64,000 nt of DNA from Candidatus Thermoflexus tengchongensis (GTDB lineage Bacteria; Chloroflexota; Anaerolineae; Thermoflexales; Thermoflexaceae). The stretch covers positions 26,371 through 90,370 of the forward strand of contig JAEVEX010000034.1 in assembly GCA_016842085.1 (NCBI GenBank), read 5' to 3'. This document shows, piece after piece, positions 32,606 through 41,053 of the stretch. A program made the position numbers and the translations under genes. Every line of letters starts with the position of its first letter. Position 1 is the first letter of the stretch. A model generated the notes under the pieces. That model ran no database searches, was not told where the DNA came from, and saw nothing but the letters and a program-made list of their open reading frames with translations.

Positions 32606-33526
32606 ATGTCGGAACAACCCTGGTGGGTGATCGTCAATCCGGTAGCCGGCAATGGGCGAACCGGCCGACGATGGGGCGGGCTGGAGGCCCGCCTGCGCGT
32701 GGAAGGGATTCCCATGGAGGTCGTCTTCACCCAGGAGCCGGGACATGCCACCCTTCTCGCCCGACAGGGCCTGGAGGCCGGCTTCACCACCATCGTCGGC
32801 GTCGGCGGCGATGGAACCCTCCATGAGATCCTGAACGGGCTCCCCCTGGAAGATCCGGGGCGCATGCAAGCCATCCGCCTGGGGATGCTCCCGCTGGGCA
32901 CTGGCTCCGATTTCGTGCGCACCTTCGGGCTGCCCCGGGATCCGGTCGCCGCGGCCCTGCGGTTGCGGGAGGGACGGGTTCACCATGTGGATGTCGGCCA
33001 GGTCACCTGCCGGCGGGCCCGGGAAACCGTCACCCGCTATTTCATCAACGCCGCAGGGTTAGGGTTCGATGGAGAAGTGGCCGATCGCACCAACCGGGGC
33101 ATCAAAGCCTTCGGGGCCACCGGGACCTATCTGGTGTATCTCTTCCTCACCCTGATCCTGTATCAGAACAAGACCGTCATGCTGCGGTTCGATGGGGAAG
33201 AACGTTCGGGGCGGATGAACTCAGTGCTGGTCTGCAACGGACGATACTTCGGGGGCGGGATGTTTATCGCCCCCCATGCGGAGGTGGATGACGGATGGTT
33301 CGATGTCATCCTCCTGGGGGATCTGGGGAAAGGGGAGATCCTCTGGAATCTCCCCCGTGTCTATCGGGGAACCCATCTGACTCATCCCAAGATCACCTGG
33401 CGGCGCGCGAAGGAGATCCACGTGGAGGCCAAAGAGCGGATGTTCCTGCAGGCCGAGGGAGAGCTGATCGGGGAGGCTCCGGCGACGTTCCGCATCCTCC
33501 CCCGCGCGCTGGCGTTTCTGGCGTGA
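32606..33526 (+). CDS. Diacylglycerol/sphingoid lipid kinase family (YegS/Rv2252/BmrU)
   Basis: IVNPVAG, GVGGDGTLHEILNG, PLGTGSDF, FINAAGLGFD, NGRYFGGG. Confidence 0.9.
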   Translation: MSEQPWWVIVNPVAGNGRTGRRWGGLEARLRVEGIPMEVVFTQEPGHATLLARQGLEAGFTTIVGVGGDGTLHEILNGLPLEDPGRMQAIRLGMLPLGTGSDFVRTFGLPRDPVAAALRLREGRVHHVDVGQVTCRRARETVTRYFINAAGLGFDGEVADRTNRGIKAFGATGTYLVYLFLTLILYQNKTVMLRFDGEERSGRMNSVLVCNGRYFGGGMFIAPHAEVDDGWFDVILLGDLGKGEILWNLPRVYRGTHLTHPKITWRRAKEIHVEAKERMFLQAEGELIGEAPATFRILPRALAFLA

Positions 33527-33663
33527 AGGAGAGTGGGAAAGAGAGGCGCTGGGATCGAGTCGGCCGCCGAAGGCGGTCAGCTCGGCCCCAAAATCCCAGC
33601 CAGGGGCAGGTCCTGGAGGATTCCTCCTCTTGTCCTGAAAAACTGAACAGGGGAAGCGCATGC

Positions 33664-34797
33664 ATGTTGACCATCCATGAATGCCGAACCCCGGCCGAGC
33701 GCCGGGCCTTTGTGACGTTCCCATGGCGGGTGTATCGGGGCGATCCTTACTGGGTTCCCCCATTGATCAGCGAGCGGATGACCTTCTTCGATCCGCAGCG
33801 CAACCCCTTTTATCAGCACGCAGAAGTCGCCCTTTTCGTGGCCCGACGGGATGGGGAGCCGGTGGGCACCATCGCAGCCCTCATCAACCATCAGCACAAC
33901 GCCTTCCATGACGAACAGGTGGGCTTCTTCGGTGCTTTCGAAGTGCTTCCCGATCGGGAAGCCGCCCACGCCCTCCTCGCCACGGCCCGGGACTGGGTTC
34001 GATCCCGGGGCATGACGGCGCTGCGCGGGCCGACCACCTTCAGCACCAACGAGGAATGCGGCCTCCTGATCGAAGGATTCAACGACCCGCCTCGCATCCT
34101 GATGACCTACAACCCCCCTTACTATCGGGATTTCATCGAGAGCTTCGGCTTCCAGAAGGCGATGGATCTTTACGCCTATGAGCTGACGGTGGAGGTCTTC
34201 AACTGGCCGGAGAAGCTGGTCCGGGTGGTGGAAAAGTTAAAGAACCGTGCGAAATTCCGGGTGCGCCGGGCGGATATCCGGCGCTTCCGGGAGGAGCTCG
34301 AACGCATCAAAAAGGTTTACAATTCCGCGTGGGAGCGGAACTGGGGCTTTGTGCCGCTCACCGATGCGGAGATCGAACATATGGCGGCGCAGCTGATCCA
34401 ATTCGTGGACCCCGATCTGGTGTTCATCGCGGAGGTCGACGAGGAACCCATCGGGTTCTCCCTGACCCTTCCAGATATGAACCAGGCCCTGCGAAAGGCC
34501 TACCCCCGCCCCGGCGTCCCGGAGTGGTGGACGCTGCTCAAGCTCCTGTATTACTGGAAGGTGCGCCGGGTGGTGGATACGATCCGGGTCTTCGCCATGG
34601 GGGTTGTGGAGAGCTGGCGCTCCCAGGGGGTGAGTGCGCTGTTCTATTACGAGACCGCGAAAGCCGCCCTGCCGAAGGGCTACCGGCGCGCGGAGATGTC
34701 GTGGGTGCTGGAGAACAACCTGATGATGAATCGGGATATCCAGGCGATGGGCGGGCGGATCTACAAGATCTATCGGATCTATGAGCTGCCGCTGTGA
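33664..34797 (+). CDS. Tandem-GNAT acyltransferase, YghO/bacterial ceramide synthase (bCerS)-like
   Basis: FPWRVYRGDPYWVPPL, NPFYQHA, GFFGAFE, RGP..FSTNEECGLLIEGF, YNPPYY, SWVLENN. An in-frame GTG at 33523 overlaps the kinase stop. Confidence 0.8.
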   Translation: MLTIHECRTPAERRAFVTFPWRVYRGDPYWVPPLISERMTFFDPQRNPFYQHAEVALFVARRDGEPVGTIAALINHQHNAFHDEQVGFFGAFEVLPDREAAHALLATARDWVRSRGMTALRGPTTFSTNEECGLLIEGFNDPPRILMTYNPPYYRDFIESFGFQKAMDLYAYELTVEVFNWPEKLVRVVEKLKNRAKFRVRRADIRRFREELERIKKVYNSAWERNWGFVPLTDAEIEHMAAQLIQFVDPDLVFIAEVDEEPIGFSLTLPDMNQALRKAYPRPGVPEWWTLLKLLYYWKVRRVVDTIRVFAMGVVESWRSQGVSALFYYETAKAALPKGYRRAEMSWVLENNLMMNRDIQAMGGRIYKIYRIYELPL

Positions 34798-36095
34798 ATC
34801 CAGTAATGAGGAAATCCCGGCTGAGCGGACGAGAGCTCTGGCCCTTCGGAAGGTCCTTCACCCTGCTCTGGGTGGGCCAGCTTCTGTCGCAGGTCGGCGA
34901 TCAGTTCCTCTTCATCGCCGGATTAAGCCTGCTGGACCGCCTGACGAACTCCCGGGCCGCGTTCGGGGGGCTGGCGCTGGCCATTACCCTTCCCCAGATC
35001 CTCTTCGGGCTGTGGGGCGGGGTCTTCGCGGATCGCTGGCCGCGTCGTGCTGTGTTGATCGGCTCCGATGTGGCGCGGGCGCTGATCGTCCTGGGCGCGC
35101 TGACCGTGCAGACCAACGCCGATCTATGGCGGCTGTATCCGCTGGCCTCGGCTCTGGCCATTGCGGGGCTCTTCTTTTATCCCGCCCGGAACGCGGTGCT
35201 CCCCGCCCTGGTTTCTCCGGCTCACCTGCTCCAGGCCAACACCATGCTCCAGGCCAGCTACATCCTGGCCCTGGTGGCAGGCGGGGTTTCCGCCGGGTTC
35301 TTTGTGGATCGCTTCGGGCCCTACGCAGCCTTCATCCTGGACAGCCTCACCTTCCTCGTTTCCGCCCTCACCCTGGCCTGGATCCGCCTCCCTTCGTCGG
35401 TGAATCGGCCCCAGCCAGCCCGGCGGAATTCTCCCGGTCGGGATCTGCTGGAAGGCCTTCATTTCGTGTGGACCCGGCGTTCCCTTCGAGGGGTAGCGGC
35501 CATCACGCCCTTCGCCACCATCGGGATCGGTGTGGTGCAGGTCCTCGGCCTGGCCTTCCTGGCCGAGGTTCTGCAGGTGCGGGCCGGGGGGTTCGGCCTG
35601 ACCATGGCTATGATGGGGATCGGCCTGGCCATCGGGCTGGGGGTGGTGCCGTTGCTGAGCCACTGGATCCCCACGCATCAAATGGCGGGGCTCTTCCTGG
35701 CCGCCGCCGGCCTGGCCACGGTGGCCTTCAGTCGGGCCCAGACCTTCGCCTTCGTGCTCCTGGCGGCCTTCGCGATGGGGCTCTGTGTGGTGGTGGCCCG
35801 GGCCGGGCTGGCCACCCTGATCCAGCAGATCACCCCCAATCCCCTGCGCGGGCGGGTGGACAGCCTGGTGAACCTCGTGGTGAACAGCGCCCTGGCCCTC
35901 GCCCAGGGAAGCGCCGGGCTTTTCGGCCAGCTCTGGGGGCCCCGGCCGGTGCTGATGGGGGCCGGATTGCTGATGGTGCTGGTAGGGGGATTCGCCGCCC
36001 TGGGCCTGCGCGGAATCCGCGCCCTGCCTTCCGAAGAGGCCGCCCCGGCGGCCCCCACTCCGGAACAGGAACGCCTCCTCCCCCCTCCCCGGTGA
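34794..36095 (+). CDS. MFS transporter
   Basis: LLWVGQLLSQVGD, GVFADRWPRR, LRGRV; GTG overlaps the upstream TGA. Confidence 0.88.
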   Translation: MNPVMRKSRLSGRELWPFGRSFTLLWVGQLLSQVGDQFLFIAGLSLLDRLTNSRAAFGGLALAITLPQILFGLWGGVFADRWPRRAVLIGSDVARALIVLGALTVQTNADLWRLYPLASALAIAGLFFYPARNAVLPALVSPAHLLQANTMLQASYILALVAGGVSAGFFVDRFGPYAAFILDSLTFLVSALTLAWIRLPSSVNRPQPARRNSPGRDLLEGLHFVWTRRSLRGVAAITPFATIGIGVVQVLGLAFLAEVLQVRAGGFGLTMAMMGIGLAIGLGVVPLLSHWIPTHQMAGLFLAAAGLATVAFSRAQTFAFVLLAAFAMGLCVVVARAGLATLIQQITPNPLRGRVDSLVNLVVNSALALAQGSAGLFGQLWGPRPVLMGAGLLMVLVGGFAALGLRGIRALPSEEAAPAAPTPEQERLLPPPR

Positions 36096-40021: not shown

Positions 40022-41053
40022 TCACAAGGGGGCGGAGGCGCTCCCTTCCCCCACCCGGGAGATCACGATGCGATACAGGGGCACCTCCCGGGCCCCGAAG
40101 CGGAACTTATACGGTTCATCTCCCCGCAGGAAATCGAAATCTCGCTTCCCCTGCTCGATCGCCTGACGGATCAGATAAGCGAGCAGGACCACCCCGGGGC
40201 TCAGGCCTGCGAAACGGGGATGGAAACCCGCGTTATATAACCAGATCCGATCCCGGTAATCGAAATCCAGATACGTCGCCGCCCTCTCGCCCTCAATCTC
40301 AATAAACGAGAGACGGGCCCATCCTTCCCGAAAGCCATAACGGATCACGTGACGAAAGAAGGTGCGCATGCGCTCACTCAGGAAGTCCGCCTTCTCAGGG
40401 CTGCTGGCGGCCATCAGATCCAGAAATGCCTCAATGGCTTCCTCTGTATCCGGGCCTTCCTCCTGCAGGATATACCAGCGGACGTTTTCCAGCGCCTCCA
40501 CCCGGCGCATCTTGCGCCGCAGCTCGTGACGGTCCTTCCCATCCAGCATCTGAAGATAAGCCTCCCACGTCGCAGGCAATTGCAGCACCGGGCACACCGT
40601 TAATGGCTCCACCCGAGCCGTCAGGCCGTAAGCGGACGCCAGGTTCGGCCACAGGGGATACATCGGGGAATCCTCCCGGATGTTCCACAGGATCAGGAGG
40701 TCCCACTCCGGCGCCCCCAGGCTGAGCAGCCAGGACAGAAGCGCATGGGCTATCTCCCCCTCCCGACCGGATTCCACCGGGAGATCCAGATAATCCGTGA
40801 CCTCCTCGCTGAAGGTCTCCAGAACCCGGCGGCCATCCCGGACGATCCGGCGCAGGGGAGCGATGCCGATCAGCCGCCCTTCTTCCTCAAATGTCAGAAG
40901 GTGGAGCTCCCCCTCCCCGAAATGCTCCCACCAGATCCGCAGCCAGCCCGGGCGCAGAAAGGGGGCATCCACCGAGGACCGGCGCAGCAGATCGCTCCAG
41001 GCCTCCGCCAGCTCATCGAAGACGGCAGGATCCTGAAACCGACAGAGCCGCAT
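40022..41053 (-). CDS. GNAT acetyltransferase, CelD/BcsL (Acetyltransf_6) type
   Basis: PFLRPGW..WW..F, TDYLD, DRHELRRK, YNAGF..SPG, DFLRGDEPYK. Confidence 0.85.
   Translation of the reverse strand: MRLCRFQDPAVFDELAEAWSDLLRRSSVDAPFLRPGWLRIWWEHFGEGELHLLTFEEEGRLIGIAPLRRIVRDGRRVLETFSEEVTDYLDLPVESGREGEIAHALLSWLLSLGAPEWDLLILWNIREDSPMYPLWPNLASAYGLTARVEPLTVCPVLQLPATWEAYLQMLDGKDRHELRRKMRRVEALENVRWYILQEEGPDTEEAIEAFLDLMAASSPEKADFLSERMRTFFRHVIRYGFREGWARLSFIEIEGERAATYLDFDYRDRIWLYNAGFHPRFAGLSPGVVLLAYLIRQAIEQGKRDFDFLRGDEPYKFRFGAREVPLYRIVISRVGEGSASAPL

Follow-up and report, generated by a model that had tools for sequence, protein, structure and literature searches.

A candidate ceramide synthase gene paired with a transporter gene at a three-gene locus of Thermoflexus (Chloroflexota)

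The window analysed here is a stretch of 64,000 nucleotides (nt) from contig C64 (JAEVEX010000034.1) of Candidatus Thermoflexus tengchongensis, a member of a genus that NCBI places in the Chloroflexota. Its source assembly (GCA_016842085.1) is 3.9 Mb long and 95% complete. Between two housekeeping genes, pyrG upstream and a gene for a PolX-type polymerase downstream, lie three genes that encode a lipid kinase, an acyltransferase of the GNAT superfamily that is a candidate bacterial ceramide synthase (bCerS), and a transporter of the major facilitator superfamily (MFS). Below, handles that begin with G, C, L and f denote genomes, contigs, loci and families. When the open reading frames were re-derived, all three genes were found in one orientation, at the coordinates given by an earlier interpretation made from the letters alone, here called the sequence-only reading. 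The features are:

32606-33526, + strand: DgkB/YegS-BmrU-type soluble lipid kinase, 306 amino acids (aa), recognised by PF00781, PF19279 and TIGR00147
33527-33663, + strand: spacer between the kinase and GNAT genes with a strong hairpin, recognised by fold energy and repeat matches
33664-34797, + strand: tandem-GNAT N-acyltransferase of the bCerS/YghO family, candidate ceramide synthase, 377 aa, recognised by YghO homology, tree and AlphaFold (AF2) model
34794-36095, + strand: MFS_3 (DHA3/EntS/LplT-like) transporter, 433 aa, recognised by PF07690 and PF05977

The GNAT stop and the MFS start overlap in a GTGA at 34794-34797 (4 nt), as the sequence-only reading had noted; the MFS gene could instead start at an ATG in the same frame at 34806. 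A second GTGA, at 33523-33526, had been proposed as a possible overlap between the kinase and GNAT genes. The letters are there, but GTG 33523 was ruled out as the GNAT start, and translational coupling with it, by homologue lengths, a break in conservation and the spacer seen in relatives. GNAT homologues are 377-390 aa long, and their alignment begins at residue 1 of the product that starts at ATG 33664, which is preceded at 7 nt by a Shine-Dalgarno-like, purine-rich GGGGAAG. Comparison of 12 Thermoflexus genomes revealed that DNA conservation ends at the kinase stop and returns approximately 15 nt before 33664, and relatives have approximately 50 nt of other sequence in place of the whole spacer (joint 33526/33664). 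As the GNAT gene starts at ATG 33664, 137 nt separate it from the kinase gene in the window. The spacer hairpin has a fold energy of -32.7 kcal/mol (33540-33610). Its core (33550-33595, approximately 45 bp) looks like a short dispersed repeat inserted between kinase and GNAT, similar to repetitive extragenic palindromes or miniature inverted-repeat transposable elements (REP/MITE-like), because dozens of matches to it, frequently at the ends of contigs, occur in Thermoflexus genomes G201, G206 and G207. In its own genome (G000), where its location is also given as C68:16091-16136, it has only one other, weak match. A scan of the locus for intrinsic terminators and promoters gave nothing above chance.

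No public run with RNA of this exact strain was found. Assemblies from hot-spring metatranscriptomes contain relatives that are approximately 84% identical, among them a single 3,992 nt contig that carries the kinase, a 50 nt spacer, the GNAT and the MFS gene and ends in intergenic regions on both sides. Further contigs from RNA libraries span each junction singly. These contigs fit a three-gene transcript, although contigs that span genes are no proof of one RNA, and the kinase gene is probably co-transcribed in Thermoflexus.

The closest database matches of the GNAT are named Thermoflexus and are 92-98% identical. Beyond the genus, the 377 aa protein, which contains PF00583 and is encoded by a single-copy gene, is 35% identical to YghO of Escherichia coli K-12 over 365 aa (E 4e-72) and 34% identical to the YghO copy of an E. 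coli chromosome (L020) in which an intact aasR-epi-acpR-spt cluster was seen beside yghO. The yghO gene (ECD_02850), part of this cluster, is the counterpart of Caulobacter CC_1154, an N-acyltransferase required for dihydroceramide (PMC9386255). The motifs that had led the sequence-only reading to bCerS, namely DPYWVPPL, NPF, GFFGAFE, GPTTFSTNEECGLLIEGF and NPPYY, were all found in the translation, and they fall on invariant or nearly invariant columns in alignments of 12 and 50 family members. In a tree of 27 sequences, the Thermoflexus enzyme lies in a clade (support 99/98) with GNATs from GNAT-MFS pairs and with a copy from family f54 that adjoins genes for an oxoamine synthase (AOS) and a reductase similar to ceramide reductase (CerR). 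A wider clade (100/100) adds E. coli YghO, the GNATs of operons in family f89 and genome G007, and AOS-GNAT fusion proteins, and leaves out a subfamily on a long branch, from families f2 and f4. Full-length homology to YghO and a shared clade with members clustered with CerR and serine palmitoyltransferase (Spt) thus bear out the assignment to the YghO/bCerS family.

The family is large: at a threshold of E ≤1e-3 it comprises 8,892 cluster representatives, and still 1,689 at E ≤1e-30. An AF2 model built from a 50-sequence alignment has the tandem GNAT fold, with a predicted local distance difference test (pLDDT) of 94.4. Its best matches among solved folds are generic tandem GNATs, at a template modelling (TM) score of approximately 0.6 and 13-15% identity. 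A PDB sequence search returned only marginal, chance-level matches (E ≥0.038) and no solved structure of the family, and an NCBIfam search returned no match.

The remainder of the genome, where the sequence-only reading had suggested looking for an Spt-like AOS and a ceramide reductase, contains candidates for both. This answers its caveat that the window encodes no Spt, and the refuting case that it had named, a GNAT outside the bCerS clade in a genome with no Spt-like gene, did not arise. A search with PF00155 gave 11 matches, of which two are AOS. The first, at C55:12070-13308, is 95-98% identical across the genus. Its best NCBIfam model is that of serine palmitoyltransferase (NF047600; 542 bits, cut-off 640), and the bioF model scores 391 bits. 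In the AOS tree it shares a clade (100/99) with two AOS-GNAT fusions, the enzyme of a Chloroflexota operon and E. coli Spt, the last on a long branch; Kbl forms another clade. The second AOS, on C88, passes the BioF/Kbl-family model, and its gene immediately follows one for a threonine dehydrogenase (47% identity to E. coli Tdh); this adjacency, that of a Tdh-Kbl operon, identifies it as Kbl. As neither BioB nor BioD was found in the 95% complete genome, a role of the C55 enzyme in biotin synthesis is unlikely, and together with the tree position this rules out that it is BioF. The organism may need external biotin. A third AOS clade in the tree (100/100; f2 genomes, L064, L066, L068, L070 and L080) branches as the sister group of the Spt clade, apart from Kbl, and no bio or lipid genes were recognised alongside its genes with the query set used.

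The CerR-type candidate lies at C1:12644-13597. It shares 44-49% identity (250-273 bits) with reductases encoded within operons in genomes of the same class, for which the next-best match scores 131-152 bits, and it is the reciprocal best hit of these in 5/5 genomes. Identity to the CerR-like proteins of E. coli and G007 is just 25-37%, and these two queries gave ambiguous matches in Thermoflexus that were resolved by the in-operon queries from the same class. The f89 genomes also contain a close paralogue. A gene for a GT28 glycosyltransferase was found at C80:13915-15024, and its product is 43% identical to the GT28 protein of the G007 operon. Unlike in the E. coli cluster, orthologues of AcpR and AasR were not recognised in the genome at E 1e-3, where only generic acyl-CoA ligase matches were returned. 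No lipid genes were found in the neighbourhoods of the C55 AOS, the C1 reductase or the C80 GT28 gene.

In relatives, the three core genes come together. The operon of G007 (L021:8699-13134; G007:C9) encodes an Spt-like AOS, a bCerS-like GNAT, a GT28 glycosyltransferase resembling monogalactosyldiacylglycerol (MGDG) synthase and a CerR-like reductase, which suggests a glycosyl-ceramide as its product. A row of GNAT, reductase and AOS genes was seen in four f89 genomes by inspection of the DNA and in two more by coordinates, and in one f54 genome the AOS gene is divergent from a reductase-GNAT pair. Two proteins of approximately 780 aa, P0158 and P0262, are fusions of an AOS and a GNAT. One of the two shares 45% identity with the GNAT of the window in its GNAT part and, in its AOS part, 54% with the C55 enzyme and 40% with the Kbl-like one.

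The distribution of the genes was followed in a phylum sample of 200 Chloroflexota genomes, 20 of them from the class of Thermoflexus, and in a class sample of 250 genomes (201 and 251, respectively, with the genome of the window). In the phylum sample, orthologues of the C55 AOS are split off by a score gap (≥465 versus ≤362 bits) and are present in 12 genomes, and all 12 contain a member of the GNAT family. An Spt-clade gene was found in 150/250 genomes of the class sample (151/251 with our own) and the GNAT in 183/250 (184/251). By hand count, approximately 146 of the 150 Spt-positive genomes (97%) contain the GNAT. As the sampled genomes are related to one another, these counts describe the distribution and do not serve as a test.

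A long-branch GNAT subfamily (100/100) shares 27-33% identity with the GNAT of the window and includes the f2 and f4 loci, L022 and L024. In G076 and G148, one copy of this type is divergent from an Spt-clade AOS gene, and many f2 genomes carry the subfamily without that AOS. The top-scoring family representative, P0125 (784 aa), matches the GNAT twice, as though the entire tandem GNAT had been duplicated head to tail. At L087:359-5991, a 49% identical homologue is encoded between SIR2_2 and SIR2_2-NACHT genes, a defence-like context unlike the lipid contexts seen elsewhere. Seven f62 genomes of 2.0-2.3 Mb (G222, G265, G305, G340, G371, G395 and G418) contain orthologues of the GNAT (57-59% identity), the MFS transporter and the kinase, all unlinked. 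In the window itself, 4 kb downstream of the locus, 40022-41053 (- strand) encodes a 343 aa Acetyltransf_6 (FemAB-like GNAT) protein for which no relation to the locus was seen.

The third gene of the locus encodes a protein with the domains PF07690 and PF05977 (MFS_1/MFS_3). It scores far below the cut-offs of its best curated models (TIGR00900, 179 bits; EntS, 77 bits; LplT, NF008397, 46 bits). In at least 12 genomes of the class sample, from six further families, an orthologue (39-50% identity) lies directly downstream of the GNAT gene on the same strand (G225, G304, G394, G339, G229, G311, G387, G250, G235, G277, G316 and G397; five of the 12 confirmed on DNA), and the pair is also present on a metagenome contig (L085). 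Conservation of the pair thus extends to at least seven families within the class when Thermoflexus is counted, which supports the link to transport that the sequence-only reading had drawn. In the phylum sample, no good orthologue of the MFS protein was found, and there was no MFS gene near 38 GNAT or AOS loci. The resulting impression that the pairing is specific to the genus was an artefact of the few genomes of the class in that sample, and was overturned by the class sample. Many Spt-positive families do not contain the pair, and G250 and G387 contain the pair with no Spt-clade gene found. In the GNAT tree, MFS-paired and Spt/CerR-clustered enzymes interleave within the 99/98 clade.

That three unrelated genes are chance neighbours is highly improbable. 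The flanking genes are of the housekeeping kind and the adjacency of the kinase is specific to the genus, as would be expected of such a row. However, the 4 nt overlap of the GNAT and MFS genes, the conservation of this pair across at least seven families and the RNA-library contigs that cover all three genes speak for a connection, and for GNAT and MFS the lack of any functional link is already unlikely. We conclude that the MFS transporter is a lineage-specific yet conserved partner of the GNAT that probably handles the lipid or its precursor. According to PMC11087976, bacterial sphingolipids are still without an identified flippase or transporter. Tentatively, the GNAT-coupled MFS_3 protein may be a bacterial sphingolipid transporter, either a flippase that brings ceramide or keto-ceramide into the outer membrane leaflet in a monoderm or an importer of single-chain (lyso) sphingoid lipids that the GNAT re-acylates, in the manner of LplT-Aas. 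Import of such lyso-lipids would also explain the GNAT-MFS pairs in genomes in which Spt was not found.

The kinase contains the DAGK_cat (PF00781) and YegS_C (PF19279) domains and a GVGGDG that includes the GGDG nucleotide motif. It passes TIGR00147 (YegS/Rv2252/BmrU; 162.9, cut-off 118.65), and the nearest solved structure is that of DgkB from Staphylococcus aureus (2qv7; E 4.7e-31). The sequence-only reading had likened it to CpgB, the ceramide kinase of Caulobacter. Such a kinase, acting on ceramide or on the long-chain base like CpgB or dhSphK1 of Porphyromonas gingivalis, would make the locus an operon that makes, phosphorylates and exports a phosphosphingolipid. CpgB and dhSphK1 do belong to the same kinase superfamily (PMC10331486), every Thermoflexus genome with a long enough contig has the kinase, GNAT and MFS genes in collinear order, and RNA-library contigs bridge the kinase-GNAT junction, at which the spacer of the relatives is just 50 nt. 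A second lineage, represented by L085, has a gene for a 38% identical DAGK_cat kinase two genes from the GNAT-MFS pair, on the opposite strand. Apart from this metagenome contig, an orthologue of the kinase was never found on the contig of the GNAT outside Thermoflexus in either sample. Kinase orthologues are present in 125/201 genomes of the phylum sample and, at E ≤1e-55, in 61/251 of the class sample, including small genomes free of Spt, and at the same threshold they were not found in families f6, f58, f64, f65, f3 and f78, all of which have GNAT and Spt. In contrast, cpgB tracks sphingolipid genes, and nearly all genera that have it encode Spt, bCerS and CerR (PMC10331486). With best matches to generic YegS/BmrU proteins and DgkB, a distribution independent of Spt and bCerS, and a GNAT adjacency confined to Thermoflexus, the likeness to CpgB was not upheld. 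A ceramide-kinase role is weakly supported, a complete module of the kind described is rather improbable, and the gene probably encodes a general lipid kinase that joined the operon in one genus. Separately, in family f2, a Kbl-clade AOS gene lies 2-3 kb from a gene for a YegS-like kinase paralogue, which shares 27-31% identity with the kinase of the window (L067, which is G043:C1:560285-564717; L071; L082), an arrangement found by coordinates in at least seven genomes.

Taken together, the homology, the position in trees, the joint occurrence of the genes, their clusters and fusions in relatives, and their recovery from RNA libraries are what the analysis shows, and they point to the GNAT as the putative ceramide synthase of a dispersed Spt-bCerS-CerR pathway, with the MFS_3 transporter as a conserved partner that would move the lipid or a precursor, and with the kinase rather a general diacylglycerol or lipid kinase. 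We assign this explanation a probability of roughly 0.6; which substrates are used, in what sequence the enzymes act, and what the transporter carries and in which direction are all inferred. From serine and an activated fatty acid, the C55 AOS would form a 3-keto long-chain base, which the GNAT would N-acylate from an acyl thioester on the cytoplasmic side. The CerR-type, NAD-dependent reductase (C1) would then reduce the keto group, and the GT28 lipid glycosyltransferase (C80) may add a sugar. The MFS_3 protein would most likely shift the lipid, or a single-chain precursor, between leaflets or out of the cell. For the kinase, activity on diacylglycerol or on lipids in general is more likely than activity on ceramide. 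The sequence-only reading had also offered a diol-like lipid as the product, and no evidence for diol lipids was found.

Several observations weigh against this explanation. The Spt, GNAT and reductase genes are unlinked in the Thermoflexus genome, and the literature searched contains no lipid data for the genus. The backbone of the larger GNAT-family tree is weakly supported, and E. coli YghO, used as the proxy for Caulobacter CCNA_01212, is an orthologue by literature whose activity is only inferred. The MFS protein scores far below the cut-offs for LplT (46 versus 297 bits) and EntS, and a PDB sequence search with it at E 0.01 returned no match to any solved structure. The RNA-library contigs come from relatives that are only approximately 84% identical and have even depth, so DNA carry-over is possible. 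By hand count, the class sample also has the GNAT in approximately 37 of its 100 Spt-negative members; these include f62 (7/8), in which an Spt-clade AOS was found in 0/8 genomes, the GNAT-MFS genomes G250 and G387, and genus g48. As the GNAT occurs in genomes in which Spt was not found, the enzyme may use different amines in certain lineages.

The main rival reading of the GNAT, suggested by these genomes, gives it another amine as its substrate in this lineage. The GNAT and MFS proteins would make and export, or import and re-acylate, an N-acyl compound that is not derived from Spt, such as another aminolipid or a small amine, and the co-occurrence with Spt would reflect shared ancestry. To the Spt-negative carriers already listed, G304 can be added, the contexts of close homologues vary (Lgt/NadE, NfeD-Band7 and SIR2/NACHT), and the MFS_3 family contains siderophore and drug exporters. 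However, some of the Spt-negative genomes are just 85-93% complete, and the presence of the GNAT in approximately 97% of Spt-positive genomes and the union of both enzyme types in fusion proteins tie the family to Spt. The interleaving of Spt-clustered and MFS-paired GNATs in the tree, where the MFS-paired enzyme of f65 is sister to the AOS/CerR-clustered one of f54 (100/99), argues in the same direction. We consider a product that does not come from Spt unlikely.

With ceramide synthesis as the preferred role, the locus can be compared with known systems. The GNAT belongs to the same family as Caulobacter CCNA_01212 (CC_1154) and E. coli YghO, has the same tandem GNAT fold and, like bCerS, is predicted to be soluble and of the membrane-peripheral type. 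As in the bCerS pathway, an Spt-clade AOS and an NAD-epimerase-type reductase are encoded in the genome, and relatives from the same class have the three genes in clusters. Unlike in Caulobacter and E. coli, the pathway genes are dispersed in Thermoflexus and the GNAT gene is paired with an MFS_3 transporter gene. Thermoflexus also differs from both in being thermophilic and monoderm; it thus lacks a periplasm for CerR as well as an outer membrane and export of the Lpt type. Two pairs from other bacteria offer parallels, LplT-Aas, a lysophospholipid flippase with an acyltransferase, and YpfP-LtaA, a glycolipid synthase with an MFS flippase. As in these, a transporter gene is coupled in the window to the gene for an enzyme that acylates or builds a lipid, and the MFS protein appears to share the broad MFS_3 group with LplT by a weak NCBIfam match. 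The kinase has the DAGK_cat fold of CpgB (CC_1160) and DgkB and adjoins a sphingolipid gene in Thermoflexus. It is set apart from CpgB by a distribution independent of Spt and bCerS and by DgkB as its nearest solved relative.

The finding is another member of the bCerS pathway, which had already been predicted for Chloroflexota from metagenomes. The sphingolipid potential of the phylum was proposed earlier from Black Sea metagenomes, and Spt-like genes have been predicted in metagenome-assembled genomes (MAGs) of Chloroflexota from marine metagenomes and correlations with lipid abundance (Ding et al. 2024, PMC11334938; PMC12619533). Our analysis concerns the same phylum and draws the same inference of sphingolipid capacity in Anaerolineae-type members. 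It differs from the MAG studies in that it concerns a hot-spring genus with a cultured type strain, identifies the bCerS and reductase partners by gene and adds a transporter partner. New here are the previously undescribed GNAT-MFS_3 partnership, the identification by gene of the three core enzymes in one thermophile, the wide spread of the trait within the class and its presence in a genus with a cultured strain.

Culture studies of Chloroflexota that are sphingolipid candidates have been called for (PMC12619533). Synthesis of sphingolipids in the phylum has so far been inferred from marine metagenomes only, and the cultured strain of Thermoflexus allows a direct test. If the explanation preferred here is true, amide-linked lipids would occur in a thermophilic monoderm. 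The GNAT-MFS_3 pair is a concrete candidate for the missing bacterial sphingolipid transporter. Anaerolineae-type bacteria are abundant in sediments. With Spt and GNAT in approximately 60% of 250 genomes of the class, the trait looks like a major feature of Anaerolineae-type membranes.

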